A stretch of 63,793 nt of DNA, filler included, from Hausera hauseri (taxonomy: Eukaryota): the NCBI GenBank assembly GCA_046269625.1. It is 11 parts of 11 records of this genome, joined end to end, with 100 filler letters (N's around TTAATTAATTAA, not from the genome) between each part and the next. Parts side by side here need not be neighbours in the genome. Positions count along the whole stretch, not along the records: positions 31,859 to 37,390 come from JBJURY010235184.1; 10 more parts are not named here. The stretch is one strand, 5' to 3'. Shown piece after piece: positions 25,783-54,894 of the stretch. The position numbers were made by a program, and so were the translations under genes. The notes beneath the pieces were generated by a model. The model saw only the letters and a list, made by a program, of their open reading frames with translations, did no database searches and had not been told where the DNA came from. Each line of letters begins with the position of its first letter. The first letter of the stretch is position 1.

Positions 25783-25843
25783 GGTATCTACTGTTGCCGG
25801 ACTAATTGGCTCTCTGCATATGCATATCGGGGCGTGATTGTAG

Positions 25844-25946
25844 ATCCCCATACTCATGTGTTGTACCGAGTGTACTGACCAAAAGGGAACTGGAGGTTAG
25901 GAATATAACCAATGTTCCCTGAGGGAAGGGAACGAGGTACAACACA
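25844..25946 (+). repeat. DIRS internal complementary region / terminal repeats
   Basis: 25844-25867 is the exact reverse complement of 20423-20446. 25888-25946 is a 59-bp direct repeat (1 mismatch) of 20375-20433. Confidence 0.9.
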
Positions 25947-26277
25947 GGNNNNNNNNNNNNNNNNNNNNNNNNNNNNNNNNNNNNNNNNNNNNTTAATTAA
26001 TTAANNNNNNNNNNNNNNNNNNNNNNNNNNNNNNNNNNNNNNNNNNNNTGGTTAGGGGAATGCCTGATCAAGATTACAATAGTAAAGGTGACTCCTCAGA
26101 CCATCAAGCAAGTGATACAAACTAACGAGTCGAGATAAACGAGACATGTTGTAATCTGACAATGAAAGAAACTAATACTTATATCTAAATTTAAAGAAGA
26201 CTTTGAAGTGAAATGACATATGACAACCAAATAATATATTTTAAATTAACAAAGAGTTGTTCAAAACAGAAAACGCT

Positions 26278-26620
26278 TAACAATTGTTGTTCATACAAGC
26301 AAGCCACAATAAACAGTAATGGCCACACAATATAGTCATTGGTTGTCAATAATGAAGTCGATTATATTCAACAAGATGATGTGATTATCTTTTAATTTGT
26401 GAAACTAACATTTAGGGATAGTAAAATTTGAGAGGATCGAATACTTTGACGACGGTATGATGCATATACACAGCAATTCATTGTTCTCCCCATAACGATG
26501 AAGTTTGTATAGTGGCAATGAAACCACCACCAGATTGTGGTAAGTCACGCGACACACAGTCCAGTGGAAACACGCTTTGAAATTTCTCACCCAAGAGCAG
26601 TTTTCCGTAGTGACTGAGCT
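26278..26620 (-). pseudogene. Adenain-like cysteine protease
   Basis: FQSVFPLD..GGFIATIQTSSLWGEQ*IAVY..VFDPL..VEYN..QPMTILCGHYCLLWL (degraded GEHW / FD / Q..CG.YC motifs). Confidence 0.78.
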
Positions 26621-26711
26621 CAGTGGAGCTAAACGTAAAACGTGATATATGCGTAATAATAATAATGAATTACTTAATGGTATTAAGAAAAAGAGAGACA
26701 TTCGATTTTAT

Positions 26712-27912
26712 TTACACAATGACGGTTTCATTTTTCGTTATTTCCACTTCGGCATCAAATACGCCGTAAATGTACATCACGGTATACTTTTCCAGAGCTT
26801 TGGGAAGGTGAACCTCTAATCACAGGTTTTCCTGTTGAGTTAGTTGAGACTGTTCAACGTCATAATCTGGAGCCAAGACAAAGGAAAAGAATGGATAGGA
26901 GGACTTGAACAAGTCTATCTATATGCCACTGTTGATGTTTTTGTTCAGCAAGCCCATGTTATACACGACAAATTGCGTATATGTGCAAACATAATCGTGG
27001 GTCTCAATATTTTGCTTATACGTCTAAACGAAATCCGCATTTTTGCCCAAACTGATGTCATTCACATTGCCATTGGTAAATGTTTCTGAATCGGTGGTAT
27101 AACTGCCGGTTTGTTGAGCAGTCGATTGAAATGTGACAAGCATAAATTTCGTCAATCGCATATTGCTAAACAGCGCATCCTTATGAAACGATGGTGTAAA
27201 ACACGAGTTCGATGCGTTGAAATGGGTAACAGGCATTCTGTGTTTCCAAAACCAATCGATGTCCCATGAGCATAAATGGTTCTACCTTTACACAACGTAC
27301 GTATAATCGTGCTTGGGTAATTTTCAGTATGGGTTTGATATTTACAACTGCAGTTTTCAGGCAAAAGACATTGTCATTGCATTTGAGTCCAATCATGGCT
27401 TTAACACCAGGCAAAAGGTATTTCGGCTGATCGAAATAGTCAAAATACAGCGGTCCACACATGGTAAATGCTTTTGATTCTTCCACTCATTTCTGACGGT
27501 TTGCCACTGTAGCATCATATCCGATGGTTTTCGTCAAATGAGTCGTTTTCGTGTCTGTACTATAATTCAACGCCGTTTCAATGAGAGCTTTGATACTATA
27601 CACATTGGTATTGCCTTCAATTTTAACACTGTTCAGAGTCAGTGAAGCTTCCTGGAATAGTGTGAGGAAAATGTAATTGGCCGGTGTGACAGTGTCTGTT
27701 GCAGCGAGAACCGTTGATGCATCCTTTTTAGCAATAACTTTTACATACATTAGCGTATCGTTCAAATCCATATATTCATTGTCCGATGCTATTATATTGA
27801 ATTGAATGTCAATGTTGTTGTCAGTCGAAACAGAATCAACGGGTAGATTTCTTCAAATGTTGCTTTGTCAATAACGACTTGTGATGCGGCCTTTGGATTT
27901 TGCAGATGCCAT
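26712..27912 (-). pseudogene. Polinton major capsid (double jelly-roll, hexon-like) protein
   Basis: EYMDLNDTLMYVKV, ANYIFLTLFQ, YSIKALIETALNY, LYFDYFDQPKYLLPGV. Ends AEVEITKNETVIV*. Confidence 0.88.
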
Positions 27913-27919
27913 TTGTTTG

Positions 27920-28170
27920 TTAATCGAAAATTGTACAACGACGACGTTTGTTTATTGTTAAAAAGTTCGATGATTCTCTAAGTTTTCTCAAGCCACTGCT
28001 GGTGAAATGTTTTTGGACTGATTCAACGACTCCCAGTGCAGCGCTTTTTATTTCTGCCTAGGTGTTTTCCTTTAACGACGGTAAACTCGATTTGTTTTCA
28101 AGTAGCACATCTCGTGCTGTTTTTGCTGCCATGGCTCCAATACGTTTCAACACCGTAATTGGTCGTACAA
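27920..28170 (-). pseudogene. Small basic core-like protein upstream of the major capsid gene
   Basis: LKRIGAMAAKTARDVLLE... and a terminal KRRRCTIFD*. Confidence 0.55.
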
Positions 28171-28199
28171 ACAAAAGAGATTCTGGCTCACAGTTTATT

Positions 28200-28440
28200 A
28201 TTTTTAAATAGTAGTTGAGATGGTTCATTTGCCGTAACCCGATGGGTTGTGCTATAATGTATTTTCATATTGCCCTTTGGATGTCACCGGTGCGTAAGGA
28301 AAGTTAAATTCCCTTAGTGCAACCTACCATTGTCCAGATACATTTATCGGATTGTCCCTATCTACAATGTATTGACTGGCCTAATTGTTCTGACGAGTCG
28401 TCGGACAACTGTTGCTCGGTAACACCATGTAAAGACTCAT
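28200..28440 (-). pseudogene. Penton copy 2, N-terminal fragment
   Basis: MSLYMVLPSNSCPTTRQNN*ASQYIVDRDNPINVSGQW*VALREFNFP. Confidence 0.78.
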
Positions 28441-28469
28441 ATTATTGTAATGATAATAATAATGCCGTT

Positions 28470-29055
28470 TGTTTATTGTCGACGTCGAAAATGTAGCGTC
28501 AAATGTGTCGTGGACCCGTGCAGAAATTTAACGGGTTTCCAAAATTCATCTAGCATGTGCACCGAAATATTGTACACAACATTGTGAGATAACGATAAAT
28601 ACAAGGGCCGGGTGATATTGACGTGAGCCGTTTTGTCGGGTGTTTTGTACGTGTCAAAATCAAGTGTATCAGAGGCAATTAGTTGTTTGATTAAATGCTA
28701 CGTAGTGTCATGGTTTGTATATAGCAACAATTGCTCGACCGCTACCGTTTTAACCGAATTCATGTTTCGAAAAGCCCAGATTCCGTGCTAATAATTCATC
28801 GAAGGTAAAATATGTAACTATAGTATGTAGTGTAAACGAAATACGACCATCGACGTTTAATTCTTATGAATCTAGAGCCAACTTAGCTACTTCTCTCATA
28901 GATACACACAATTCTGTTTCCGATTCCAACAGTAAATCGTATCCCTTAGTATACGAGTAAAATGTTGATTTTGTCATTTACCAGTTTACCGTAATATCGG
29001 TTTAATGGGTTTAAAGAAGTTCAATTTTCTTTTACCAACTATGACACGTCCACAC
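28470..29055 (-). pseudogene. Penton copy 1, C-terminal fragment
   Basis: Nucleotide similarity to about 14980-15617; ends THLTLHFRRR. Confidence 0.75.
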
Positions 29056-29069
29056 GTATCCGTCGATTA

Positions 29070-29595
29070 AGTAGGCCGGTTGTGAGGAAATGCTTGTCGT
29101 GCAACATAATTGTGATAGTCTGATTACGGGGATTTTTAAACACTACCAATTAGTGTAAGTTCAGATTTCGTGTTTGATGCTGTTCGCCCTGATAGAATAT
29201 GTTTTCCGTAATGAAAATCACCACTACACCACGGTGTTGTGCAATTTTCTTAAACAGGTTGTTGAAGTCGGTTTGTTTCGTGGTTTCTTGGAATAAATCG
29301 TCAATGACAATAACGTCACTGCTGCGTAATCGTCCGGACCAGTTCTCATCAAACCCATCTGTTACAGTTATCGATTTCAAATTACAAAATTCTTGATGTA
29401 TCAGACCGGACTATCCATCATCATCATCATCATCACACCGGAACCCTGATGCCAGTAAATGTCACTGAATCGCTGTGATTGAAATATGCCACAGTAGTTT
29501 TGCAATAGTTTACAAAGTGTGTTTTACCACTTCCACTGTTGGTAGCAGAGCGTGATTTGTGCTCCGCATCGTGATTGGTCTTTCGAAGTATCCAT
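29070..29595 (-). pseudogene. Polinton packaging ATPase
   Basis: NSGSGKTHFV (Walker A), VIVIDDLFQE (Walker B), IAQHRGVVVIFITEN. Confidence 0.85.
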
Positions 29596-30149
29596 GTCTG
29601 TCTCCTTGTTTTCGGAACTTATTCATTCCGTTTGAATGTTGACAAAAGCGGGAACCTTATGTGAAATATGCACGATAAGGAAATACGGTGAAGTGAATAA
29701 AATGAAACATCGTGACTATCTCACAGAGGCGACGCAAAAATCAGGAGTTGTAATATCTTGCGCCTAGGGCGATAAATATTTAAAAAGAAAAGATAAAAAT
29801 GTCTATATTTCAAAACACGTAGAGAATAGACACCGACTGACAGAACCCGTGGTAACGGATTGGAGAGGAGAATACATCAGGAGATCCTTGTTTGAGACGA
29901 GTGATCTCAAGAAATTAAATGGATCGCAAGAATTCAAGAAATTCGAAGTTCAAAACTGCTGAACCTCGAGTTAAAAGGATATGTCGAGAACCAATACCAG
30001 CGGCGTGAAGTGGGAAAAGATATTGGAGTATTGCATACTGGAAGGAAATAAGTCACAAAATTTGCAGGAGTCGTCTAAGAAGGATGAAAGAGAAGAACTC
30101 AGCCTTAAAGATTTTGTGCAAGAAACAACAAAAAACAGAGAAGAGGAAA

Positions 30150-30377
30150 TTGACGATATTTCTTGAGACAATTTTGGGAAAAATAATTGCGATGTTAGTA
30201 AAGATGTCGGATGAAGTAGAGAAACTGAAGTCGGTTGTCGAATAAAGAGAAGAAATCCCGACAAACCAACAAAGGGTAATTTACAATGGAAAACAACTAA
30301 AGGATTGTCGGAAACTTAGTGAATATTATATTCATAAGGATTTCACTGTTCATTTGCAGTTACGGTTAAAAGGTGGG
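30150..30377 (+). pseudogene. Ubiquitin-like domain (76 codons, one internal TAA)
   Basis: [75 protein letters not shown] aligns gap-free to ubiquitin; 37/76 identical by hand count. Confidence 0.92.
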
Positions 30378-31473
30378 AGTGATTCAACTGTAGACGAACT
30401 GGAAGATAGGATATCTGAGCGACGTAAGTACATCAACGACCTTTCAGCGATTCGGAGGAAGTTAATGTATGTAAAACTGAATGATCATGAATACGAAATT
30501 TATCATAAAAATATGACTAGTCGTTTACCGAGCTTCAAGGGGAGTTGAGTATACTAGCCACTGCAGCTAGAAAGTTGAGAAAGAGGAGAACCTCACATTG
30601 TTAGAAAATGATATGGAAAAACTGGACAATCAGGACGAAAAAATCAACGCGATCATCTACGAGAGAAGCTCAAGAGAAAATAAGATGATGATCGCCAAAG
30701 GAAGGTCTGAAAAGGAGAAAACGGAAAGAGTAATGTTACCAAAGTTACAAATATTAGAGTTGCCGAAGTTTGGGGGGGCTAGTTACCGAATACGATAAAT
30801 GGAAAAAGACCTTTGACACTTGTATCCATAAAACTCCAATGTCGGAATTATATAAGCAACTGCAGCTGAATCAATGTTTGTATGGCAAGCCGAAAAAGCT
30901 GATTGAAAATTTCGACCTAACAGAAGAAGGTATAAAGCGTCCCTCGAGAAATTAGATTCCTATTATGGAGGTGAACAACGTTGTTATGCAGCGTTCATAA
31001 CCGACGTCATAAGATTTCGGGTAATAGAGGAAAAAAATATTAAATGGCTAGATAAATTCGTGGCGTTGCTAGAAGGAATAATTGTAAGACTGAGGAATCT
31101 AGGGAGAACGGAAGAACTTAGTGGAGGGCTATTGTATCAAAGCCTCGTGGAAAAGCTACCTGAGTCAATTGTGCTTCTATGGGAAAGGCGTGTTATCGAA
31201 AAGAAGTCGGAAAGGACCGTCTTGGAATTGAAGAACTGGATCGAGATAGAAGCGATAGTCAGGAGAAACACTATAGAGAGGGTAAGAGGAATCGAAGTTT
31301 TCAATACCAGTCAAGACGGTCGATATACATCGATAGAGGACGGAAGATCGTATTTTACGAAGAGATCACCGGTTGTAAATAGACAGAGTGGGAGCATGAA
31401 TAATAAAAGGAAAGATCAAAAGGAAATGCAGTCAAATCAATCCAAGACACAAATAGAAGATCGGTCCCAGAGG

Positions 31474-31620
31474 TGTTAGAGTTTTGATAAGAATGGTCAG
31501 TGCAAATTTGGAGAGAATCGCAAATACTTACACCAAACAAGTAAGGACGATCAAAGAAGAGAGTGTTGGTACTTCGAGAATGGAGAATGTAAGTATGGAG
31601 AAAACTGTAAATTCCGGCAT
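31474..31620 (+). pseudogene. Tandem CCCH zinc fingers
   Basis: C*SFDKNGQCKFGENRKYLH (degenerate) and CWYFENGECKYGENCKFRH (C-x7-C-x5-C-x3-H), in frame with ORF 31060-31479. Confidence 0.85.
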
Positions 31621-31858
31621 GGAAAAATTGGTAGCAAAGGAAAGAGCAAAGGCAGTTATTATAAGAAGGAGATAAGGCAAGGGACTGAAAAATTTTGCGA
31701 AAACATAGCAGGCAAGAAGAAAAAGAAAAAAATATCACGAACGATAAAAATTGAAGAANNNNNNNNNNNNNNNNNNNNNNNNNNNNNNNNNNNNNNNNNN
31801 NNTTAATTAATTAANNNNNNNNNNNNNNNNNNNNNNNNNNNNNNNNNNNNNNNNNNNN

Positions 31859-33888
31859 GATTCCAATTCGTGTTTCCATTTTAATAATATTTCCGGGGAC
31901 ACCTCTTCAGGCTGCCTCACATCGATTGCTTCAACAAACTTCCCTTCGGTACGTAATTTCAAGCTTTTATATAACTTCTCGGCGTATTGCTGTTCTTTCC
32001 CAGATATGTTGACTTGTTCACTAATCTGCTTGATCTTCTCTAAGTTTCGTTGTAATATTTCGGGCTCTAAACAATAAATTCTCATTTTCTTTAATTCGTT
32101 GGCGTTTTTCCATGAGCGTCGGATTTTCCACTTTTTCTAATTGAAATCGTCATTGTTGGCCGTTTCTTCCTCACTAACGGGAAGTGGGCAGATTTCTCTA
32201 ATTTTATTAATTGACTCTATCGGCTCCGCTACTCCGACAGGTGTGTATGAACCAATTTCTGGTGTATTCAAACTATACTCCGTGTCGCCTTCTTCAACGA
32301 CATTCGGGTTTTCCGTTTCTTCAATTTTCTCTCCGGTTATTTTGGAAAGTGAACGACTTCTACGTTTGGTTTTTAGTAAAGGGCTACGGCCTCTATTTTT
32401 CGTAATTTTGAGTATTAATAATTTCATAAATTCTTTTTCTGCTGTATGGTCCTCCGTGAGCTCAGCTATCTTTTGGACTGTGAGCTCATGCTTTGCGTCT
32501 AAATCTACTGTCGTCGATGTGCTTGGGTTATCAGATGGCTTATTACTTGTCGGAATACTCTTTTTCCGTGTCACATCACTTTGCTTAGGTGCTATTCCAT
32601 ATTCATATTTGGTTTCGGGTTCTGCTAAGCCGCGATATACCTCTAATAACCTTAACTTATCTCTGTATTCTCTTCTAGCCGTCAAAAATTGCAGGTTAGT
32701 AGTATCCGGCTAAGCATCTAGAAATTTTCTCAAATCATGTATGTCGATCATAGTGCCTGTATCTCCGCGGATGCCATACTTTTCTTCCATTTTCTCATTG
32801 GTTCTAATCATACTAGTCTTATTTGGTTCAGTAAATGAAACGTTACGCGGATTTGGACATGACCTTGAAATGTGTCCTTCTTTACTGCAAGTAAAGCAGA
32901 CTAAGTTTCCGTTTCTGCCGACTCTTTGTCGTCCGTCTTCGTTTACCGGTGACTTAGATCTATTTATACCTTTATTATATTGATTTGCCAAGTTTTGCGT
33001 ATTATTGGCATTTCTTCTGTTGTCACTATTTCGGCTATCGCTGTTTTGATTTGAGCCTTTATAATTTTCTCTATTCCTATCCCAGTTGGGTTCTGATCTG
33101 TTCGTATTAGAATAATTACCGCCTATACCATTTCTGTAACCGGCATTGTTGTTTCTATTCCCATAATTTCTGTTGCCCGTAAATTGTCTGTCATCTCTTC
33201 CACGATTATCATTACGATTCCTATCATTTCGGTCATTTCAATTGTTATTCCTATCGTTTCTATCATTATGTCTGGCGTATCTATCTAGTGCCATTTCTAA
33301 ATCTTGGGCTAATCGTAACGTTCCTTCAAAATTCTTGGGTCTAGCTAAAATCAGTTGTTTAATCAAGTCTCGTAACCAAATACCATTTATTAGTTGCGTT
33401 TTCATCATGACATCTAAATCCGACGGTGAGGCCTTCTCTGCGGCGTCGCGTTCTGCCTCCGTTTTGGCTTTAGCCACGTTGGCTATTCTCAATGTGCTTA
33501 TGTAACTATTAGCAAGTTTCTTCAACGCAAATGCAAATTGGGTTACCGATTCACCATTTTGCTGTACTCGGTTTTGAAATGCCATAAGCTTTTGTTGCGG
33601 CGTTACGGTTGGCAACAATTTACGATTTAATGCTCCTACCATGGAGGACCAAGATTTCTTTTCCTCATTAGTGAGTTCACTATAGGCATCAGCGACTAAA
33701 TTTTTCAAATACAACTACAATCGCTTAATCGTTACTTCAGGAGTCAGACTAGCACCTTCCGCGTGCAACTTATAAGTTCTCAAAAATTCCTTGAGCCCAT
33801 CTGGGTCTCCGTCATATGCTAGCAGGTTTAGAGAGTCGAACGTGAAAATGTCCAGTTTCTGTGCTACGGGTGGATTATCTGCTGCCAT
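31859..33888 (-). pseudogene. gag: Gypsy gag (capsid, N/R-rich tract, CCHC knuckle) running into domain X
   Basis: MAADNPP..YDGDPDGLKEFL..RVQQNGESVTQFA..CFTCSKEGHISRSC. A few in-frame stops. Confidence 0.9.
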
Positions 33889-34267
33889 ATAATTTACGTT
33901 ATTTGGCTCTAAATTTGCTTTATTTACTCTAGGTTTCTCGAGTGGAACTTTAAACTGTTTATCTTGCGCAACAACGTCTAGTTTATTTCTATTCTCAGAA
34001 TTTGAACGTTTTCTACCTTTTCTGTTTCTCTGTATATATTTCTAGGCGTTTCACGTATAGGTGAATTGTCTTTTAATATACGATTTATTCCTGACTTATC
34101 AGTGTTTGTTCTCAATTAAATTTTGTTTACTTATCCCCGTAAAATAGCCTATATACCCGAAATTTAAATTCCGATTCTGAATAAATCAAGTTACTCGGTG
34201 TAATGGCGCTGTTCGCCGGTATGTAATTATTTAACTCTGATAAGTAAAGTCTAGCGAGGTACAGACA

Positions 34268-34284
34268 GTCCTGTAGGGTCGCCA
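34268..34284 (-). promoter_or_regulatory. Primer-binding site (tRNA-Arg-like)
   Basis: TGGCGACCCTACAGGAC, 2 nt after the LTR 3' end ...TATAACA. tRNA identity is from memory of Arg tRNA 3' ends (..GGTCGCCA). Confidence 0.8.
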
Positions 34285-34286
34285 AA

Positions 34287-35112
34287 TGTTATATATTGGG
34301 GTGGCCCTTATACAATCTCCCACTATATAACAATAGTTACACTTGAAGTTAATGTTTACGCAGGTAAGGTCTACCGTAATCGTGTAGACAGAATGTACCT
34401 TAACCAATTTAAATATTTAGTAATGCGTGTACTGCTTGCGGTCCTCTGCAAATGTTATGAAAATCTCCTCTTACCTATACAATTTACCGTGAAATTTAAG
34501 ACCTTAGTGTCGTCGAATTACCCTTAAGGGGCACTGAAAAACTATGTAAGAATTTTAGAATAAACAATATATTTATACAAAAACAATTACTCAATGCTTC
34601 ACATATCAATCAAATTGAAGTCAGTAGTTTTCACTGAATTTGTGCTCTGCGGTTTCTAGAAAAACTTCATCTTCTCGATAATCTAAGAGTTCGCTTTCAC
34701 TTCTCTAAGGAAGTCAATAGGCTTCAATAGCTTTAGGTCAAGGGCAACTTAGAGATCTCACAAGTCTTCAAATAACTTCACAAAAATTCACAAAAGTTTT
34801 AATAGTTCTAAAATCTGTCTGCTTATATACTAATTCAACTGCGTAGGCGACTGATTACTCTTGTAATTATAATCAGTTTTAACTGAATTTTTCGGTATTT
34901 TCTGATTTAAAAATTAATATCAATTCAATGCTTTCTCCAAAAATTCTGTAAAATATACCAATTTATTACTAAATACCTTCTTTAATTTTGTACAAATTCC
35001 TAATTTCGTTCAATAACGAAAAATATTATAAATTAACAAATATCTACAATTTGTTGATTATAATGCTATCTACAAATTGAACGTCTTCTCAATTATGGAC
35101 GTCTTTACAACA
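34287..35112 (-). repeat. Long terminal repeat (826 bp) of the gag-X element
   Basis: TGTTGTA...TATAACA termini; preceded by a PPT and followed by a PBS; TATA-like GTATATAAGC at 34821-34830. Confidence 0.88.
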
Positions 35113-37360
35113 TTTCTCCTCCCTGAACGGCATCCTCGGATGTGCCCATTGCGTCAGGAGAGGTGCCGCGGCGACGAGGGTCTCGTAGTAATTCCATTCG
35201 CTGTCTTAAACTGGGTCCGGAACTTGTACTTGTTTGATCTTCTTCTCTAGTATTTGTTTCTAATTCATAACTGTAATGGGGCCTTATGCGGACTACACGG
35301 GTATAACTACCGTTTGAAAAATATTTAAGTTCAGTTGCCTCGGCTCTACACACCGGGCAGGTAGTTTTGCCATTATCTAGGGTCCATTTTTCCAAGCAAT
35401 CTCTGCAATATTTGTGTCGACAATCACGGTTATCTAAAATGACATATCCTTGGTTGAGATTTGCTTCACATACTGGGCATTCATTTTCTTCTTTGCCCCA
35501 TTTCTCATCATCTAAATCTACCCTTATTATAAGCTCTATGGGTTCGAATATGAGACCATCCTTATCTTGATATATGTAACCATGGATTCTTTTTTGTTTG
35601 GGATTTACTGAACTCTTCCTGGGGTCACATCCTACTGGTACTAAAATCCAATCGGCGATAGTATCTCGATCTAAATCGGGAATTTCGCCATCCGTTTTAT
35701 ATTTTTGATACTGTCTTTTCAACAAAGCTTTCATTTGTTTATCCACTGGCACTGTTAGCTTTCCATTTCTCTTTGATAGGAAAACTGGCGCGATGTATTT
35801 TCCTATTTTAGGGTTTTCCCAGATGTAGGTATTTTCATATACTTCTCGAGCTGGTGTGGTCTTCACGAAAAACATTGCTTCTTTGATCGTCTGGCGGCTA
35901 TAGTACTCGGTTGTTATTAACATCCTTGGGTGATCTTTAGTTGTCGCAAAGTGAACATCTTCTTGGGAGTTTCGTTTTCTAAGAATGTTAACTTCCGTAA
36001 ACAGTTGTTGAAATCCACTTTCTGGGTTCTTATGTTTATATGATGATCTCTTGGGTTTTTCTAGACTTGTTATCTGGTTGTCTTCGGACGTTGTTGGCCT
36101 TTCGGGTTCTTCGTTTGTTTTATCGGGTTGATTCTCTTGAACTTGGTTCGGGTTTATTCCTTTATTCTTCTTTTTGAATAAATAATCGTAGAGGGATAAT
36201 TTTCTTTTGATCGGAGAAATTTGTGTTTCAGCTTTCTGTTTCTTCGACGGAATTTTGGGTACTTTGAATATCTCAGCTGTTTCTATTTTCTTGCTTATGG
36301 GTTTGATTTCTGGAATCGGTTTGACGTAAGAACTATAACTGGTACTTGGTACTTCTGTACATAGTTGGCTTGGTTTTTGAATGATTATTTTGATATTATC
36401 TCGTCCCATCGGTTCCACAATTCTGCATGGGGAATATGAACGATACTGCTTCCGATACCTTTTATTTATATTTTCCGGTTCGGTTGTACTTCGTAGATTT
36501 TGTTCTGGATTATTAGGTGTCCACTCATGGTCCCATTTTAAAGCTACGTATATGTCGCGTAAGTAGCGAGTACGTTGACTTGCAGTTAGCAGTTTACTAA
36601 TCTTAACATGTTCGCTGTTCATGGCATCGACCATTAATTTGAAATAGGCGTCCATAACTTTTGGTGCGGGGTAATTTCTTTCTCGTAATATTCGTTTACT
36701 TTGTTCAGCGACTACTGGGTGTGATCCTATCTCCCGTATTCCTACGATGGTCGATATGGGTATTTCTAATAATTCAATAATATTATCGATGCGGTATCCT
36801 GTTATGATATATCCATATAAACAATGTTCTAATTCAGATTGAACAAGCTTGATGTCTCTGCCTTTCGAGAGTGTTTCCTTGCGAATTCCTGTCGTATCAT
36901 AGTATGTTTCGCGAACTCGTTTTCTTGGGCTGATAACTGTACAATATACCTCTGTTCCGTTCGTTTCTCGAACTGACACTTCCATTGGGATTTTCTGTGC
37001 ATTGTCTGCTTCTCCACAATTAATCGCTATGATTCTGGTATTTCTGTCATCCTTCACTAGTCTATACGATTGTAGGAATGTGTCCAAATCTTTTTCTGAT
37101 GGTTGTTGGTAGAACTTCAAAGGTGGTAATTTGACATATGGGTAACCGTCATGCGTTACTTCGAACATTATTTTTACGGGAAGGGTGGCTACTCTGAACT
37201 CTAACTCGTAATGTTGCAAATCTTGGCTACGGAAGCTAAGTGTACTGAATCTGTATTGTCTTCCATCGTTGGTGTTCCATTCTTGGTCTTTGAATCGATA
37301 ATATATCTCACCGTCTGCTAGGTGGATGTAAATTGTCTGTCTACTCCCGTATGCGATCAT
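35105..37360 (-). CDS. 3'-terminal ORF of the LTR element: inactive DEDDh (REX4/ISG20-like) exonuclease domain plus C3HC4 RING finger (5'-partial)
   Basis: 751 aa, frame open to the contig end at 37390. RING CPVC-x15-CRH-x2-C-x2-C-x12-CPVC at 35348-35479; exonuclease-like fold at aa ~109-275. Stop codon lies inside the LTR. Confidence 0.85.
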   Translation of the reverse strand: MIAYGSRQTIYIHLADGEIYYRFKDQEWNTNDGRQYRFSTLSFRSQDLQHYELEFRVATLPVKIMFEVTHDGYPYVKLPPLKFYQQPSEKDLDTFLQSYRLVKDDRNTRIIAINCGEADNAQKIPMEVSVRETNGTEVYCTVISPRKRVRETYYDTTGIRKETLSKGRDIKLVQSELEHCLYGYIITGYRIDNIIELLEIPISTIVGIREIGSHPVVAEQSKRILRERNYPAPKVMDAYFKLMVDAMNSEHVKISKLLTASQRTRYLRDIYVALKWDHEWTPNNPEQNLRSTTEPENINKRYRKQYRSYSPCRIVEPMGRDNIKIIIQKPSQLCTEVPSTSYSSYVKPIPEIKPISKKIETAEIFKVPKIPSKKQKAETQISPIKRKLSLYDYLFKKKNKGINPNQVQENQPDKTNEEPERPTTSEDNQITSLEKPKRSSYKHKNPESGFQQLFTEVNILRKRNSQEDVHFATTKDHPRMLITTEYYSRQTIKEAMFFVKTTPAREVYENTYIWENPKIGKYIAPVFLSKRNGKLTVPVDKQMKALLKRQYQKYKTDGEIPDLDRDTIADWILVPVGCDPRKSSVNPKQKRIHGYIYQDKDGLIFEPIELIIRVDLDDEKWGKEENECPVCEANLNQGYVILDNRDCRHKYCRDCLEKWTLDNGKTTCPVCRAEATELKYFSNGSYTRVVRIRPHYSYELETNTREEDQTSTSSGPSLRQRMELLRDPRRRGTSPDAMGTSEDAVQGGEML
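35113..35124 (-). promoter_or_regulatory. Polypurine tract
   Basis: AGGGAGGAGAAA directly before the LTR TG. Confidence 0.85.
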
Positions 37361-37789
37361 CTGTTTAAGTGAGTACGCTCGGGCATCTTTNNNNNNNNNN
37401 NNNNNNNNNNNNNNNNNNNNNNNNNNNNNNNNNNTTAATTAATTAANNNNNNNNNNNNNNNNNNNNNNNNNNNNNNNNNNNNNNNNNNNNGAAACAATTA
37501 AAGGAAAAGACATGTTTGGTTTATTTTAGGGAGGTTTTTTTTTCTTAAAAACAAGTTTTGAGATTCCTCCCACCGTGCTTGATATCTGAGCTCTTTTGAG
37601 ACGTTCGGGCTGTGGTACAGCGTCAGACGGTTTGGCAGGAGCTCTGAGGTTTGTGGTTATTTGCTGGCAGAGCGGACTTCAGGAACGAGGTGGTCTGTTA
37701 TCAGTGGACACACACAGCTGCCTCTTTCTGCCGAGTCCAACTGATGTTTACCGATGCCAATTTTAGACAAGATAAGCACAAGTCCACAA

Positions 37790-40700
37790 GGACTTGAAGT
37801 GTGGAAAAGGGAAACAAAACCCCGGTAGCCGACGCAGACGAAAAGGAATTTATGGAACTGCTATTACTTAAAATCACGAAAAATAGAGGCCATAGCCTAT
37901 CATTAAAACGGAAACGTAAATATTGTTCAAGATCACCAATGATTAAAGAAAAATTAGAAAAAAGAAACTGAAATCGCTGCAGAAAGCTACGAAGAACTTG
38001 GTCTAAACACACCAGAACTTGTTTAATTTACACATGTTGGAATAGAAGAATTAACAGAATCGGAAAATGAAATAAACGATATATGTCCACTACCCGCTAG
38101 TGAAGAAGAAGCAGAACAAACCTTGAAGTTTGATCGGAAAAATAGAAAATCAGACGATCGTGGAAAAATGCCGATGAATTGAAATGGATGAGAATTCACT
38201 GTCACGAACCAGAACTATTACGACAAAACCTAAAAATACTTAAACAGATCTCAAAACAAATAGATATCTCATATAAAGAACAATAATTTGCTGAAAAGTT
38301 GTATAAAAGTTTGAAATTATCAGTGAAGGGAAACTCAGTGAATCAATCGATTTAGGACAACCCGAAGTAGTACCACCAAAATGTTAGCAAAATGGAAATA
38401 TGAATTAGGTTCATGGATAAGAAGTGGAGTTGAATTTTCAAAAACATGGAATAGAATTGAGGATGGCGTCGATGTGAAAGTGGCTAAAGCTCAGACGTTA
38501 TAAACCACGTTAGAGACCACTCCGAAATTAAAAGGAGTAAAGCGTAATTTAGAACAGGCAATGGAAGGAATTAGGTTTGTAATGGTTAATCGACCTATAA
38601 AGAAACCGGTTAAAGAACGGAATAAAATCAAATCAGAAATATTGGGTATAGATCCAGTAGATATTCCTCTCTTAATGGAAATGTTAAAATTGCATCCTCT
38701 GCACATAATCAATATGCAAATATAGAGAATCGCATTAAAACTGTAAACCAAAAACGATCACCAATTTATAGTTTAAGAAACAGAATAATGCATATGAAAA
38801 ACGAAGCGACTCAAAATTTGATTAAAGTTTGCATCTTGGAATTTGATGAGTACAATGATGAATTTAATTATGCCAACCAGATCATAAGTTTTATAAAAGG
38901 CCCAGACGAATTAAAAAATGCTTATAAAACGCTAGACATAGCAATACTGCCGGAACCCGTAATAGCTAAGCAACTAAAAGAATGTCCGAATTAATATTAA
39001 GACTGAGTCAGGTAGTGAAAAATCGCATACAAGGGTTCACAGAAAGTGAAACGATAGTGAAACAAGAATTAGGAGAAATTTCACAAAATTTAGATACAAT
39101 GTGAACAGAAGTAGATATCCTGACGCAATTCAATACACTACAACAACTAAAAATTAGGGACAAGAACAAAGAGATGGTGTTAATGAACGAAATGTATAAA
39201 ATGATTGAAGGAACCTATTTTCAGATAAGACGAAACATTACTCATGGCCTCTATCCGAAATTAAGGAATGTCAGTTAGAAGAAGTCCAACAATTAGCTGA
39301 AAAATCCATAATCTCGATCCAAGAAGTAAAACTATTAGTCATCTGCACGGACTATTAACTGTTAATAGAAGAAGCACAGAAATTTCTACCGGACCCTCAT
39401 AAATGGATCCCAGGATTGGATCAAAAGTGGCATGCTGAATTAGTAGAGATAATGCGAGATCATCGACTTACTTTCGAGAAAACTAGTTTCATAAAGAAGT
39501 TAATTGAAGAAATCGATCCAGATTTAAGCCTATCAAATGGACGCATAACTGTCATCCCTTACAAATTAACAGAAACCAATCCCGTAAAAGGAATAACGGA
39601 CGATAAATTCCAGGATACCTCATCAAAAGGCATTTATAGACCAAAGGAAGGTGAAGCTTTTAGACAGTATCTCGCTTTTCCGCGTCAGCATACACATGAA
39701 TTAAGTCGAGCCATGGCTGCAGTAGTAGGCAAAACTTGCTACAAAGCAAAATGGGAATCTTCACTTGGTGCAAACCATTATCAAGGAGCTACCACTTAAA
39801 TACTATACAAAATTTGTGGAAGAGTTTTAATTTTTGGTAAAGCCGCATTTAGATTTTTAGCGGTCTATTTCTTCGTACAATTAATCAAAGTCGTAATCCA
39901 CGCAGTTATAAATGGATACAAAATATTTACATTTACTGGTTTTTCATGCAAAATTTTGACTGCAATTATAACATCGTTTGGAAAGTAGGTGGAAAACTGA
40001 CGCAGTACGACATGTTGGTTATTATAATCGAAAATGACAAAGAAGACCGAAAAAAACGATTAGGATGAGATGCCATCTCCAGAACAAACATACATAAAAC
40101 GTATTCTGTCATAAAGCCACAATTACCCATGTTGCCTCCGACGAAACAATGAGTTTTACGGAAAATGCACGAAAATAGGGAAAACTCTGCACTCTATCTC
40201 AGAAAGTCAGTGGATGACCACAAAATATTATATTCTCAAAGAATACTCCAAAACAAAGAAACCAGATCAATAGCCTGGGGAAATCAAAGAATGCAAACTT
40301 TTCGAAATCTAGAGCCATATACGAATAATCAAGAATCACTAATTAGTAGCCATGAAGCAGGGGATACGAACGTCACAAACAACGAACTGTATACGAATGG
40401 TGAAATGAAACAACTAACTGAAAAATTAATGACCTCTCCAAAAGTCAGAATTAACGGCCATAAAATATCGATGATTAAATAACCCAAAGTTGCATGGAAT
40501 TGTTACGGAACAATTATAGAAGGAAGGCTTTTTATCAAAGTCAGTATTGAAGACTGGGAAGTTTATGCCTTAATCGACGAAGGTTCTGAAACTTCGTACA
40601 TCAAAAGTGACAGTTCCGCAGACGTTAAGGAAACAATTGTATCCACTATCAGTGAAAGACTGGAAGTAGAGGAGCCTTTGGACAAATGTCAGGAACGATG

Positions 40701-41120
40701 TTTAAATAAATCCAGAAGTTCACATTATGGTACAATCTTTCCATCACGAATGTGTAGTAATGGAATAATTAACCGACGATGTAGTATTAAGTTGTGATTT
40801 ACTGAGGCAATTACCGAACGTGTCGGTAGATTTTCACGCTGGTAAATTAAAATGAGTAAAAAGAGTAAAACCTAAGGAATATAAATATCCGGAGAAGTAT
40901 GTATTCCAGTAGACTAGGAGATTGTTAATATTCGCACAAATCTGTGAGGATGATGGTAAACCAGTGTATTTTGAGCACATGGAAACGTTGAATCCGAATG
41001 TCGTATTTAGTAATGTACTAACAAGTGTAACATCAGGTCGTTTGACGATCAGATTAACGAATAAGGCACCAACTCCAGTTAAACTACACGCCAAAACTAC
41101 TCTTGTCCAAACAAGAATTT
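37790..41120 (+). mobile_element. Internally deleted copy of the gag-X / glycoprotein / protease element
   Basis: 37790-39523 matches domain X (contigs 4 and 7). 39524-41120 matches the glycoprotein C-terminus, TM, protease (ALIDEGS) and spacer of contig 2. Confidence 0.88.
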
Positions 41121-41533
41121 AAATTTCTCCGAAAATGTCACCGATGCTTCACCCTCAAAGTTGCATAATTTCCATCTTCCATTTTTCAATACAACTTTTA
41201 CCGTTTTTGTATGGATTCTAGCCTCAAACATACTATTTTGAAAGAAAATCAAGACAAACTCAAGGAAAAGGACATGAAGATATCGAAAGACAATTGCATT
41301 AAATGGTTTGAACATGCGGATAACGGCACAGAGCACAAACCACTCTCTTCTACCATATGAAGAATTTGGTAGGACACGGTTATGACAATGGAGCCAATAA
41401 TAACACACACGCAGTTATTTTGCGCAAAAATAANNNNNNNNNNNNNNNNNNNNNNNNNNNNNNNNNNNNNNNNNNNNTTAATTAATTAANNNNNNNNNNN
41501 NNNNNNNNNNNNNNNNNNNNNNNNNNNNNNNNN

Positions 41534-41608
<75 letters not shown>
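41534..41608 (+). repeat. (CA)n microsatellite
   Basis: Pure CA run at the contig start. Confidence 0.97.
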
Positions 41609-41609
<1 letters not shown>

Positions 41610-42566
41610 AACTGCTACAGCAATCACTTCCACACACATACCCAGGCACACGCGCACACACCCTGAGACCACGTTCATACACACACAGAGAAAAAGGGAA
41701 AAAAATCTACCCTTCGACCCCCACCCACGCTGACACAGCGAGAGAGGGAATCACTCCCCTCCTTTTACCCTTTATCTTCCACACACCACCATGCAGAGGC
41801 ACGCACCCACACAAACCCAGACACACACAGACTCCAGCAGCCCCCGTCCGTCCTTCTTGCACTACCCCGACTGTCCGGAGGTCCCACACGCCTCACAGAA
41901 CAACAAACACGGCACAACAAAAGCCAAAGTAACACACCCTAAACTATGAAGGTCCCAGACCATTCAGAATTTGGTTAAAAATTAACTACGTCCCGGACGC
42001 GTGCATATTCCCCCTCAGTAAACTAAAAATTCCGTCAATTTCGGGTGCCACAACCCTCCCGCGGGATGACGTTGCCCCGAGCTGGGTTCCCGGAACCCTT
42101 ACACCCCACTCGTCAGTGAGGTGGTTTCTCGCCACTGCGCAGCAAGGGAAATGCACTTTCTTCAGCGAGTTCCAAACTCCTGGCATACGACCCCAGGTCG
42201 AGTACTACCTAATAAATCACAAAAACACTGCGCATACACGAAGCAAAGCCGTGAGAAACACACACACGCACACGCCCGGAGAGCGCTGTGCGCAGCCGAT
42301 CTGAATAGACGCAACCCCCATGTCAGAAGTACCACTAATCAGCGCAATCTAGCTTAAACAAACCATCCTCATTTCCGGAGAAGGCTGCCCGCGCACCCGC
42401 AGAGGACAAAATAAAATAAAATTTGGTTTACCGGCCGAAAAGCTGAGTGATTCGGACCTCCCAAGGCCAGCAGGCATCAGCTTACCTCAAAAACGAAGGG
42501 CCCTCTCCTCTGCGCGCGCACCGCAACCCACTCGAATCCAAATGCCACAGCAGGCGCGCTCAGCCG

Positions 42567-42583
42567 CACGTCCGGGGTCACCA
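42567..42583 (-). promoter_or_regulatory. Primer-binding site, tRNA-Trp-like (ERV-B)
   Basis: TGGTGACCCCGGACGTG versus the Trp PBS TGGTGACCCCGACGTG; 2 nt after the LTR end. Confidence 0.82.
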
Positions 42584-42585
42584 TT

Positions 42586-43623
42586 TGAAGTGGACAGTGC
42601 ACTTTGTGTTCAAAACGGCGGAGACGTCACCTTATATAAAAAGATTTATTTGACAGAGGGTTACAAATATTCAGATAACATACGAACCAGATTAATATAT
42701 GCATATATGGAGCATGAAGACCCGACCTTAATATGGAGAAGTTCTGACCCGAATGCTCACCAGAACTTGTTGGTTATGGAGTTTTATCACTGCTTTTAGA
42801 AGCCTAGCTCCCTGATTGGTTAGAGGTTTAGGTTCGGAGCCTCTCTGCCCGTCAAGGCCGTTCCTAGCTACATTCCAGAGATAAAGTTTTATGACTCTAC
42901 TGAGCTAAGCTCTTTGTTCCAAGTTAGTGTATTATTCTGCCTTATTGGCCTAGAAAGAATACGTAGGTTAAGACTGTTATAATAATTAAGGTCTGTTAAT
43001 TATTATTATTTGCTATTTTATATTTATGTGTTGTTAATTGATAAATCCTGACTAATATAATTGTTTTTCAGTTCTGTTGGAGCTACCCTCCTCCAGTGCA
43101 GCTGTGAGCTTTGATAGACAACACACACATGAAGAGTTTTCCTTGAGGAACCAAGAATGTGATTCTGTGTTCCTAATCTATGGTTCAGTCTGATATTTAG
43201 TAACTTAACTTTATTCTCTGGTAGTTTACTGTTATATTAATATTTCTAATGTATTAGTGTGAAGATTAAAACTTGTGTGAGCTCATCTAAAATGCAGCCT
43301 GAAATTAAACAAGTTCAATGTTAATTATTATTAACATAAGGACCTGAGAGTTTTAATTTACCTGTATTGAAAGGAATACTCTTCTCGCAAGAGTAGTCAG
43401 TGTCTTACCTGTAGTATTGCTTGTCTGAATGGCTTGTAATTAAGTAAAATGTAAATTTATAAGAGTATATCTAGCTCCAGTGAGATTATAGATTACCATG
43501 CTAATTCATTGTAGTTCTATAGTCATAGTGAAACCCTTTTAAGAAAGACACGTACACACTTTATAACATGACATTTCAACGATGAATAGAAATATACAAG
43601 GAAATAAAATATGAAATCCTTCA
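42586..43623 (-). repeat. LTR of ERV-B (~1038 bp)
   Basis: TGAAG...CTTCA termini; PPT AAGAGAGGGA at 43625-43634; CCAAT near 42815 and AATAAA at 42644-42649 on the minus strand. Confidence 0.78.
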
Positions 43624-43776
43624 ATCCCTCTCTTGGTCTATCAAAAGATAGACCAACTACCTAAAGGAGGCTACAGATATTCTTGTCTCAGCCAATCGCA
43701 GGTGATCTCGGTCCGATGATGAGGAGTCCTCGCTGGCCCGCATCACAGGACACACAGCCCCGTCCCCACGACTGCA

Positions 43777-44490
43777 TCAGACCGAATCATACGAGAGACA
43801 GCAACCTTTGCACATGGTGCAACGCACCCCATCAAGACACAAAAAAAGAACCAAAACAGCCAGAGGAGGGGTAACAAGTTCAAGTGCAATCACAGCCTGA
43901 CTCCAAAACCCACCTGTAAACCACGACAACAACTCCAACGATGTTGCAGGAGGATCCTCTGCCTTAGCCGTTCGAACCCCTCTCAGCTGCGACATGGCCT
44001 CAGTACCACCCCAAACCAGGTTACAAGCACAACACACCTCCCCTCCAATAACCTCACTCTCGTTATACCTAGACAACGTTAATAGATACAAAACCATTCT
44101 ATTACATAAAACCACCACTCTCAGAGTGGACAATATGACCTAAACGCCCTCCAGCGCTATAAAAGTCGAATTAATAAACATATCGAAGCAGTAATCCTAA
44201 GTCTCAACCTGTAAAAGGGGTTTACCCATACCAGCCCAAAGAAAAGATGAAAGCATGACCTTTCCCCTGTCGTCCAGTGCTTAAAATTAGTAGGCACGTC
44301 CAAACCTAAATTGAATCATGCGGCCTAATGCCAACAGCCCCCGTCGCCTGAGTTAACGAGCCATTACCTAAAAATACCAGAAACTATTTGTCTGTGACTG
44401 CCACAGGTGCACAGAAACCTGACCAATTAGAGGAAAGAGTTAAAAGCACTGCATACCCACACAACCATAAATAATAACCAGAAAACTCCA
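43777..44490 (-). pseudogene. env: Degenerate gamma-type env (SU end and TM subunit) of ERV-B
   Basis: SNWSGFCAPV, HWTTGE, FINST, LSTLRVVVLCNRMVLYLLT, IGGEVCC, LLSWFTGGFW; collinear with the intact env at 52063-53829. Confidence 0.8.
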
Positions 44491-47400
44491 TCACCAAAAC
44501 CAGAAACCCCATTATCACTACTACCCTCTCTCGGTCAACATCCTATTTGATATGAGAACCATGTTTGGTATCACACCACCCTGAAAATGAGAATCAATTA
44601 TGTGTAAACTTGAATTCAACCGTACATGCAGGAAAAACGTCAGCCCCACATAACCTGAAAGAATAATATCACAGAACAAATGAACAATACACCCACACAC
44701 TGTAAATTCTCCGACTTGATCCAGGAATCAATTCCTATAAACCTGCAAAGCAAAATTAATCCAACATGCATGCATAGTAAAAATCTAACCCAGTAAAAGT
44801 TCATCTAATCCCACTCATGTCCAAACAGCCCCCTGACCCCTTTAAAAGCTCTGATTGTTCCTTCAGAATGACTCAAAGAAAAAGACAAACACTCATATTA
44901 AACATTTTTCCCCAGCAGGTCTTCGGTTCTTCTGTTCTTGAGCTTGCGGTGGGAGCCCTTGTTCGTCTACAAGGGTCCTGGTGCTCAACGGTATACGGCC
45001 CGCGGAGTTATCTTCGTGTAAAAAGTCTCTTAACCTATATCAGTCTGTTTAAACGTTCTAATTGACGTGTGTGTAATGGATCACAAACTATATCAGTGTG
45101 ACGCGTTTTCTTTGCTTCACGGTCAGGGCTGGGAATCTTCTTCCTTCCCCGTTCCACCTGACTGACCGACTGTAGGCAGAGCGGAGACTCCTTTCTCCAA
45201 TTTTGCTACTGCCTTTTTTCAACAAGGGGCAAAGAGTGAGCTCCCACGAAGGTCTATCACCCTCTTTCAGGTGAGATGGGGAGCTTCACACCTGTCATTC
45301 CAGCAGATCTGCCTCCACCTGACCCAGCGAGTGGATGAACTCCTCAGCAGGTGCCCACTGGCTGGTGTGATGTTCTCTCACTCCACCACCAGGTGGGGTC
45401 CTTTCCCTCTTTTGAGCAGGACCCAGTCTGGTGTGTGGTCCCTAGTCAAGTCTCCCCATTCAGATGTTTTCCCCCTGTTGAGAAAAGGCTGGACACCAAA
45501 GCTTGCGAATTGTTAAACACACTGTCTGGCCTATTTTATAGTTTTATCTATGGGATCCCTGGCCCCTGTTGGGGCCTGGAAAAGCCTAACTGTACTTCCT
45601 TCATATTAAAAATTCTTAAGTCTAGCACAACCTGCTGGTCCTCATTTCCACTGGTAGGGTGTTAATGGTCATACTAAAAATTCAGTTAAATTGCTATTCC
45701 TACATTCAGCTATAAACCTGAAATTGAAATGATGTACATACTGGACTTCTCCAGAAATACCTGTGTACTCCCGTTCCCTCTCCACCATTTCAAGCATTTG
45801 CCTCCAGTGAATCTACCTAAAATAAGCAAAGTTAACCATAACACAACAACAATACACAATACATCATAATGAGTAATTACCTATACTGGTCCCTTCTTCG
45901 AGGCTGTGGAAGGAACGTCATTAACGCATGCGCAGAAAACCTTGAAGTGCCCTATAAACTTAAAAGCCTTAGACAACTGACATATAACTCTTCCCTCCAG
46001 GTACCTGTTCCAGAGAGAACACAAGGAAAAATCCTACTCCTGAGCCTGTTGCTCAGCCGTGAAACATGTGGTTAAAAATACTTTGTTCATGAAACCTTTT
46101 AATATCCAAATTAACCTATTTTATGTCAAGTCCAGTCAAGTCAGTCAAGTGTGTTTAAAATACAGAACCACCACTTTTTCTAATTAACCTTTGATCACAT
46201 CCACTTCAGGAGGCTGTTTCAGATCCTGCTGTCTATTTTAGGGTTATTCGTTTGGGGCGTCCCCCTTTTTGACCGGTGAAGTTCCTGGAATCTGGAAACA
46301 AGAGAAGATAAATACTTATGTTAACCTATACAAGAGCAATATCGATTCTAGGCTTCTGATTTCTTTCACTTTTCAAATGTCGATGTGGTTTTCCCAACTG
46401 TTCCTTGTTGTTCTCTTAAATATACATAACTTACGAAGTCATTTTAGATATATCTATTATTATTTAATTTAATTAATGCTCTACACCTTTTATGAACTGT
46501 TTGTTTTCTTAAATATAACATGCTCTAAACCATGTGTGAACTGTTTCCTGCTAAGAACACCCTTCAACCTCCCCCCTTATTGAAACAGTGTCCTGCTTCA
46601 AAACCCTACATCCATCTGGCTATAAAATACTAACACACGGTTTGAGAAATAGTTTCAGAAATATAAAAATAATCTGGTGTAGTCGTACCATACCAACTAC
46701 AGTTAATCAATCTAGGTGTCACTCCTATAGCTAACTATAACCCAAATTCTTATATAAGTTCTCTAAGGAGTTAACCATTAAATAAATCTCATCCTTTGTT
46801 GCAAACCAGACCTTCCACATGAGCTCGTTGAAGGCAAAGACCATCATGTATCTTTAATTTATCAGACCTTACCCAACTCCATCTAAATCAGGCCTCAGGT
46901 ACAGGTTTCACCTGTGTCCAACCTGTAAAAATGAAAAGTTAAAAACAATCTATCACTAAGGAGTGGGGAGCGTCATTATAGGTTCTGATGTACTAAAACA
47001 ATTTTCATCCCAGAGCCCACGGAACAGGGGCAATCAGTCCAGCACCCCCACAGTGGAACTCCTGTGTCGTGATATGGCACCTGTCCTAAAGTGAGCCTAT
47101 GTGTGCGTTCATTATCAAGGCCAACCGTAGTTTTGATCAAGACCCATGGTTATCGGATGTCTGACATAGACCAAATGTGGAGTAGCTCCTCAGCCAGACT
47201 GTAGTAGTTGTTATTGACATTGGACCGATGGATCCTCAGCTTGTTTCTCTGTAAGTGATCTCCTTTGGTCTGGAGAACAGTTTAGCTTTGTGCAGTAGTT
47301 CATGGCTCAGCATACAGTGAGACTTGACTTGATGTCTCCACTGTTGACAAATCCAGGACCCCCATCTGGACAGTTCAGTTTGTTTCTTGACTGACAGATC

Positions 47401-48420
47401 TTTGCTTTGATGCATATCGCAAAGTCATTGTGCTTGGCTGACAAGTTCTTTGTTGTTGTGCCAGTGGTTTCTTTGAAAAGTCACATCGGTCGGTCAGTTT
47501 CCCAGATCCAGCTTTCAGCGCCCACCTGAACACATCTGGTTTCAGAGCGACAACCAACAACCTTAAGGCACTTGATGCAAAACTCAGATGGATGCTGTAT
47601 ATATCTGAACTCTCTGTATGTGTTTGTGGGCCTAGCTAGACTCACCTCCCCTGTTCCATAGCTCTGCCTTCACAGGTTGCTGAGAAGAAAAAATAATACA
47701 ATCCAATTATTAAAAGTCAGACTCAAAGTTAATTATCTGTTAACAAATTCTATCCTGGGACCACAGTGTTTACCTCCAACCGTCATCCTGCATCCTGGCT
47801 TTGCACAACGGATTTTTCATTATTATTATTATTATTATTACTATTATTTTTAAAGCTCAATTACATAAGAGTGAAAACCTTCATTTAACACTGCAAAATC
47901 CAATTCTCTACACCCACTACATAAAATATTATTTTAAACAATGTCCTCAATGTTTTAAAAGGATCAGGCAGCATGATTAAATGAACCACTGCAAATTCAT
48001 CCAGATGATAGCCATGTTTGTTCCCTGCATTCTAAACAAAATTTTGTAATTCAATTCAATTAAGACTATGTATGCAAGTCCAAGACATCACAAAGACCAA
48101 TTAGCACTGCACAATCAACGTCTACATGCACCTTTGTTCACAAAGCACAACTTCATTGCTAGAATTGTTATTTTCACCTAAATCTCAAAGTTCAGGTAGC
48201 TCTTATAAGGAAACAGTTCCTAAACTCTAAACAACATTTTCAATACATGATGAACTCCTTTAAACTGCCTAATTTAACCCAAGCGTTACAAGTTCTCTTA
48301 AAAACATTAATTAAATTTAAAGACTAGCTTCATATTCAAGTTTAAGAAGAAAAATTTGGCTAATTTGTTTACTACGTGTCATCCAGAAATGCTTTAACTT
48401 AATTTGACCTGTTTATTTTT

Positions 48421-48561
48421 TTTCATTCAGCTTTCCTCTTCTCAGGGGTCGCCACAAGGTGTCATCCTTCTCCACCTCACTCTGTCCTCTGAATCCTCTG
48501 TCCTCACTCCAACTACCTCCATGTCCTCTCTAACTTCATCCATCACTTCCTCTTTGGCCTT
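48421..48561 (-). mobile_element. RTE-clade LINE 3' fragment
   Basis: Translates RPKRK..VREDMEVVGVRTEDSEDRVRWRRMTPCGDP*. Confidence 0.8.
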
Positions 48562-50482: not shown

Positions 50483-50707
50483 TTTTTGTTTTATAAAACG
50501 AAAATGAATTTCCTTTACCTGACAATCGGGTGTTTTCTGTTTCCTGGTTCGGGTCCGTGTGGAGTCGGTCCCCGGCCGGTGAACAGGACGCCCTCCCATC
50601 TCCTGAAGTGCGGAGGATGGAGGAGGAAAAAAAACAAAAACTGTTTTCTCCTGGTGATCAGCCAACGCCCCGGTTCTCCGTCGTCGGGACGAACTCTCAA
50701 CGGAAAA

Positions 50708-50721
50708 TGTTCGTGACGCCA
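50708..50721 (-). promoter_or_regulatory. Primer-binding site, tRNA-Ser(CGA)-like (ERV-A)
   Basis: TGGCGTCACGAACA, complementary to the vertebrate tRNA-Ser(CGA) 3' end ..TGTTCGTGACGCCA (from memory). Confidence 0.8.
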
Positions 50722-50725
50722 ATTT

Positions 50726-54794: not shown

Positions 54795-54894
54795 NNNNNN
54801 NNNNNNNNNNNNNNNNNNNNNNNNNNNNNNNNNNNNNNTTAATTAATTAANNNNNNNNNNNNNNNNNNNNNNNNNNNNNNNNNNNNNNNNNNNN

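Follow-up and report, generated by a model that had tools for sequence, protein, structure and literature searches.

A degenerate ISG20/REX4-type exonuclease domain and a RING finger in the last open reading frame of a Gypsy-type LTR element from Hausera hauseri

Closest described systems

Nuclease genes carried as cargo by LTR elements are known from bdelloid rotifers, where, in the main text of PMC5408684, the ORF3 of Juno and Vesta LTR retrotransposons and of Terminons is described as encoding a DEDDy nuclease with its catalytic residues intact. Compared by description, the gene studied here resembles that of Juno and Vesta in placing a DEDD-fold gene as the extra, last open reading frame of a Gypsy-type LTR element, and six of its seven motif-intact relatives have glutamate at the third acidic position, as in the DEED variant of the same account (PMC5408684). 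The two differ in that the rotifer nucleases are RNase D-like, of the DEDDy type and intact, whereas the domain described here is ISG20/REX4-like, of the DEDDh type and apparently dead, and shares its protein with a RING finger and an additional N-terminal domain; the term “RING” is absent from the main text of PMC5408684. The closest structural matches of the domain are DEDDh proteins, and its intact relatives carry HxxxxD. Its fold is that of the DEDDh exoribonucleases ISG20, ISG20L2, REX4 and SDN1, which provided the closest structural and profile match, but unlike these enzymes the domain has no catalytic residues, shares only 10-17% identity with them and belongs to a mobile-element protein.

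DEDD folds devoid of catalytic residues also occur in PML-1 PXL, Exuperantia and Maelstrom. These are host proteins from other DEDD branches (Z 10.2 for Exuperantia and 8.7 for Maelstrom, compared to 18.4 for ISG20), so the likeness would be one of analogy and not of descent; in addition, their RNA binding has been measured, whereas RNA binding by the present domain is putative. PML carries a RING. PML-1 PXL offers a precedent in which a RING protein includes a DEDD pseudo-nuclease that binds RNA (PMC13659232), and planarian Burro one in which a Gypsy element carries cargo of the ubiquitin system (PMC6431247). According to the main text of PMC13524379, the GAG-ENV-POL order is reported from nematodes, bryozoans and flatworms, with none from vertebrates. 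The gag-PF24664 env-pol order of these errantiviruses, which have an env of the HSV-gB/chuvirus type, was recovered in records related to record 7, not in record 7 itself; “exonuclease”, “DEDD” and “RING” are all absent from the main text of that paper. A search of mainly the open literature listed no description of an LTR element whose accessory gene encodes a dead DEDDh domain or a DEDDh-RING protein.

Record 7 and the architecture of its last open reading frame

The window, the whole stretch of 63,793 nucleotides of H. hauseri DNA that was analysed, consists of 11 short records separated by N spacers, and the pseudo-nuclease gene lies in record 7 (31859-37390, JBJURY010235184.1). The features of this record, in window coordinates, are as follows:

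35105..37390, minus strand: last open reading frame, truncated at its 5' end by the edge of the record, with 761 amino acids visible (the related protein P0002 is longer by about 120 amino acids)
37037..37390, minus strand: C-terminal portion of an N-terminal domain that is beta-rich and common to the motif-intact relatives (hhalign P 98.9; strands in the model)
36536..37036, minus strand: ISG20/REX4-type DEDDh pseudo-exonuclease domain, aa 119-285 (profile, Foldseek and VIA-align)
35954..36535, minus strand: low-complexity linker rich in K/P/S/E, with a short conserved KLSLYD-type motif (29% identity to P0002)
35495..35953, minus strand: conserved middle domain of about 150 amino acids, aa 480-632 (46% identity to P0002)
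35345..35479, minus strand: complete C3HC4 RING finger, aa 638-682 (Pfam zf-RING_2 E 1e-8, above cut-off)
35113..35124, minus strand: polypurine tract, within the final codons of the last open reading frame (from the sequence)
34287..35112, minus strand: LTR of about 826 bp with TG...CA ends, single copy in the record (ends inferred from the polypurine tract and the primer-binding site)
34268..34284, minus strand: primer-binding-site-like sequence starting with TGG, 2 nt behind the LTR (from the sequence)
32710..34041, minus strand: stop-interrupted Gypsy gag behind the LTR, with a CCHC knuckle (Pfam Retrotrans_gag E 0.009, zf-CCHC E 2e-5)

On the minus strand, record 7 thus runs from the open reading frame through the polypurine tract, the LTR and the primer-binding-site-like sequence to a broken Gypsy gag, which has five stops in a single long frame (31859-34045). 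Because the order is open reading frame, one LTR and then gag, the record would represent either tandem elements or a collapsed repeat. The final codons of the open reading frame run across the polypurine tract into the LTR start, and it is therefore the last gene of the LTR element, that is, an extra reading frame at the 3' end of an element of Gypsy type. The original prediction had placed a frame open for 751 codons at this position, and this was borne out: the frame 37390-35105 contains 761 open codons from the record edge and 751 from the first Met, ends at the polypurine tract/LTR junction and encodes the peptides that had been quoted.

Records 1, 2, 4 and 8 are related, with 66-76% DNA identity in shared parts; record 7 is 68% identical to record 8 over 577 nt, and record 8 is 76% identical to record 2 over 458 nt. 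The order in the related records is gag, a PF24664 env of chuvirus/gB type, protease, RT, RNase H and integrase, so that env stands between gag and pol; record 7 itself, being cut, has neither env nor pol. Records 1, 2, 4 and 8 (2-10803, 15850-20153 and 37491-41433) are pieces of related Gypsy families, and the PF24664 env precedes the protease in records 1, 2 and 8. The pol frame of records 1 and 2 extends beyond the integrase into a hydrophobic segment, to which record 2 adds a further domain (4701-5150).

The remaining records hold other elements. A G+C-rich DIRS-like element at 20254-25948 has long overlapping open reading frames, a weakly matched tyrosine recombinase (PF00589) and a 59-bp terminal direct repeat, while the region 41534-59585 contains a vertebrate-type retroviral env (52063-53841, PF00429, 592 aa open), an integrase tail (PF18697) and, at 50141-50483, a tandem repeat with a 59-62-bp unit. 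Although the PF00429 env looks vertebrate, a vertebrate host was not adopted for the element of record 7, since the window joins separate records that may differ in host. Two records related to each other (11626-15749 and 26049-31758; 71-83% in parts) carry an integrase core and further open reading frames, and record 6 includes a BEL-type DUF1759 piece at 30907-31479.

The protein P0002 (870 aa, 48% identity) has the whole architecture of the record 7 protein. It is likely the last open reading frame of a related element, because it ends in AVQGGEML, as encoded at the polypurine tract/LTR junction of the window. Identity between the two is highest in the RING region (69%, aa 633-690), compared to 46% in the dead domain, 47% and 46% in its neighbours, and 29% in the linker. 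The zinc-ligand pattern of the C3HC4 RING is complete in both proteins, and it comes with the Trp, the Pro and the Arg that follows the last Cys. These three residues have a role in E2 binding. The N-terminal domain, modelled only in part, is beta-rich and gave no usable match in fold or homology searches, its structural match lists being filled by the nuclease domain; the middle domain (aa 480-632) had no match in Pfam or PDB. The earlier reading, sound on fold and catalytic loss, had mentioned neither the RING finger nor the N-terminal domain common to the motif-intact relatives.

Fold, catalytic positions and conservation of the nuclease-like domain

Pfam returned nothing for aa 119-285. 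A search of PDB with the single sequence gave E values of 0.07-0.59, and all three matches at E<=10 were DEDDh nucleases. A profile built from three degenerate sequences alone matched DnaQ (E 1e-4) and PolC (E 5e-4), while a profile of the seven motif-intact relatives gave the window sequence 56.4 bits, compared to -1.6 bits for the reversed sequence and a maximum of 5.8 bits among 500 shuffles, 445 of them with a reported score. Among ESM features, the top three were PF00929 clusters (0.94, 183 shared), with PF00929 in 59% of the cluster. AlphaFold2 run on 12 rows, which included motif-intact sequences, so that the predicted fold is not independent of them, yielded a pLDDT of 71 overall and 83-94 over aa 121-210; from the single sequence the pLDDT was 34 and the model unusable. 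The top Foldseek matches of the 12-row model were ISG20L2 and ISG20 (E 1e-8 to 2e-8), and VIA-align against 48,161 chains placed ISG20 first (Z 18.4, rmsd 3.0, 158 aligned), with the next match at 14.6. Because four lines agree, namely PDB matches, ESM features, the degenerate-only profile and the predicted structure, the predicted domain is confirmed as a DEDDh (DnaQ/RNase T) fold nearest to ISG20. The REX4/ISG20-type fold originally proposed is therefore upheld by Foldseek, VIA-align and the profile scores.

Profile alignment placed the five catalytic columns at the following residues:

37021, minus strand: catalytic column N124
37015, minus strand: catalytic column G126
36781, minus strand: catalytic column I204
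36589, minus strand: catalytic column L268
36574, minus strand: catalytic column R273

The D/E/D/H/D set thus reads N, G, I, L, R. None of the four acidic metal ligands of ExoI-III is present (N124, G126, I204 and R273), and the general-base His of ExoIII is replaced by L268, as it is by Leu in P0002. The segment ahead of the TG(I/L) motif has likewise lost its conserved Tyr to another residue. The claim that all five residues are replaced holds beyond doubt for four positions in the aligned sequence, whereas the fifth depends on the register, since E127 immediately follows the second catalytic column. Having lost its metal-binding acids as well as the His, the domain is inferred to be without nuclease activity, following the DEDD chemistry given in PMC13659232. 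It is very improbable that the protein is still a nuclease with a site rebuilt from E127, D202 or other nearby acids: E127 is indeed kept in all three of the closest degenerate sequences, but four of the five columns, that of the His among them, are lost beyond doubt, P0002 lacks D202, and a single remaining acid leaves PXL without activity (PMC13659232).

A phmmer search against 1.84 billion representatives gave six matches, and a profile search gave eight among 7992 scored candidates, seven of them new; word-index searches with the window protein found none among 1161 and 571 candidates, and locus scans with it found none in 39 stretches of metagenome contigs and none in viral contigs. Eleven relatives could be aligned, of which seven are intact at all five columns (six D-E-E-H-D and one D-E-D-H-D, at about 20% identity to the window), one is a fragment with only an intact ExoIII, and three are degenerate. 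The residues of the latter are N, G, M, L, C in P0002, N, D, T, N, R in P0015, and N, A in P0003, which ends after the ExoII Gly and shows only the first columns. P0002 and P0003 are 45-48% identical to the window in open frames from two independent assemblies, and share with it the N at the first catalytic column. Catalytic loss is thus common to these two closest relatives where visible; among the aligned relatives, the full set of DEDDh residues is retained by distant family members only (7 of 11), so that the expectation that retention in copies would mean an active nuclease applies to those and not to P0002 and P0003.

Except for one partial sequence, the intact relatives carry the same N-terminal domain, and the degenerate and intact sets align over the N-terminal and nuclease domains (304 columns by hhalign). 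Because of this shared domain and alignability, the sequences indicate one two-domain family in which catalysis was lost at least once. In a tree that left out repeats 3 and 4 of P0005, as well as P0009, the window protein groups with P0002 and P0003 (100/99), the loss being old and shared. P0015 has a long branch and lies among the intact sequences, and the hypothesis of only one loss was not rejected (p-AU 0.097). The RING is present in the two full-length proteins of the dead clade (window protein and P0002) and was found neither in the motif-intact relatives nor in P0015, some of these sequences being partial. P0005 itself is a protein of 804 aa with four tandem REX4-like repeats, none with the full catalytic set; its repeat 3 reads N, G, L, gap, R, replacements nearly identical to those of the window on a separate branch.

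Two public runs contain the stretch, neither of them RNA. In run X1, 1160 contigs align over 1.5 kb, and the family is therefore multi-copy; X1 is a relative and not the source, because the letter of the window is in the minority at many places. Within 36805-37004, a span that leaves the catalytic codons at 37013-37021 and 36779-36781 outside, 31 differences were listed at >=8%. The 28 transitions among them comprise 20 silent and 8 replacing changes, compared to a neutral silent share of 0.34, which gives a pN/pS of 0.21 (P 6e-5; the ratio counts sites, not events), and two of the three transversions are at fourfold sites. Among 40 listed of 396 rows in X1, 32 were silent, the figure for the domain itself being 12 of 16, and none replaced a catalytic-column residue. 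The replacing changes among copies are conservative. These patterns indicate that the domain is under purifying selection and not decaying, and the predicted retention of the fold across copies is supported by the pN/pS over 36805-37004; the kept fold, the lost catalytic residues and the selection all hold for the same domain.

The opposite reading takes the gene for a relic in decay, or for an artefact arising because the record is collapsed or a consensus. It would fit the order of open reading frame, single LTR and gag, the broken gag, and the single contigs with indels (7 rows among 40 listed of 396). It is already largely refuted and extremely improbable, given the pN/pS and given that P0002 and P0003 share the kind of replacement in open frames despite their divergence from the window. 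The conservation bears as well on whether the domain is a pure scaffold, which would give the N-terminal domain a folded spacer or a surface for dimerisation, bind neither nucleic acid nor a host target and leave function to the RING and middle domain. The invariant or nearly invariant family columns (G145, P155, G193, G198 and Y281) are all structural, and the conservative nature of the replacements agrees with this, but long surface-looking runs conserved with P0002 (EVSVR, TGIRKE, LEHCLYG and GIRE) probably exceed what a spacer needs, and we consider the scaffold rather unlikely.

Possible functions of the conserved protein

Since the domain is kept by selection, it presumably binds something, and the intact RING joined to it makes an adaptor plus E3 ligase the simplest unified reading. 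We tentatively propose, at a little less than an even chance, a pseudo-nuclease adaptor joined to a RING E3 that would act on a host or element target to the benefit of the element. The ISG20-shaped domain would bind rather than cut, its ligand being either the end of an RNA or a protein that partners the host enzyme it resembles, and the RING, a predicted active E3, would act on what the front domains hold. The most likely target would be a host silencing or RNA-decay factor, which would be removed or modified through ubiquitination, and the last open reading frame would be read from a spliced subgenomic RNA. This proposal draws on the established position of the gene, its fold and catalytic loss, the N-terminal domain of the intact relatives, the selection and the RING pattern. 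Against it stands the charge of the dead domain, which has no basic excess (27 K+R and 25 D+E) and is not more basic than the motif-intact relatives. In addition, the suggested link between catalytic loss and RING gain comes from two full-length sequences of one clade, and catalytic loss needs no RING, because P0015 is degenerate without one. The dead domain and the RING may act independently, given that they are about 350 aa apart across a partly disordered stretch.

Independent action is the core of a further explanation, in which the dead domain caps the 3' ends of element RNA or cDNA, or occupies host exonuclease partners as a decoy, and so shields the element, with the RING separate. This corresponds to the RNA-binding module or decoy of the original prediction, and it is possible though unlikely. 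It agrees with the fold match, the purifying selection and the RING-less P0015, and RNA-binding dead DEDD domains are known from PXL (PMC13659232) and from Maelstrom and EXD1 (cited in PMC5408684). The Arg at the last acidic column of the window and of P0015 could also hold a phosphate; P0002, however, has Cys at this column, and the missing basic excess and the altered Tyr segment argue in the same direction. A more specific form of the adaptor-ligase proposal, which we regard as doubtful, is that an ISG20-like antiviral nuclease was captured and now serves as the targeting arm of the element's own ligase, its dead pocket gripping RNA ends within silencing or decay complexes of the host while the RING destroys the proteins carrying these ends.

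If this more specific form is true, the protein would be a transposon-encoded anti-silencing factor, and the family would form a series from active enzyme through pseudo-enzyme to E3 fusion. To our knowledge, few animal transposons are known with counter-defence proteins of their own, and a conserved protein with a pseudo-nuclease and a RING is a concrete candidate. The motif-intact, degenerate and degenerate-plus-RING forms, standing side by side, offer a view of the change from enzyme to adaptor. Such cargo is probably under-annotated, because the domain is invisible to Pfam.

The contigs of the motif-intact genes (L001-L003) have no RT, and the membership of the intact relatives in retroelements is putative. 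Beside the intact gene they carry duplicated small coiled-coil open reading frames and a membrane protein with a signal peptide (in L001 at 1806-2207, 2687-3061 and 3476-5089; also in L002 and L003). The membrane open reading frame of L001 showed no similarity to the post-integrase extension of record 2. In all three contigs, the small open reading frames and the nuclease open reading frame begin behind a splice-acceptor-like AG, comparable to the accessory genes of complex retroviruses. The first ATG lies 1-4 nt behind a T-rich tract plus AG in six of six cases, which represent only two types of open reading frame and have no chance control, and these positions hint at spliced messages.
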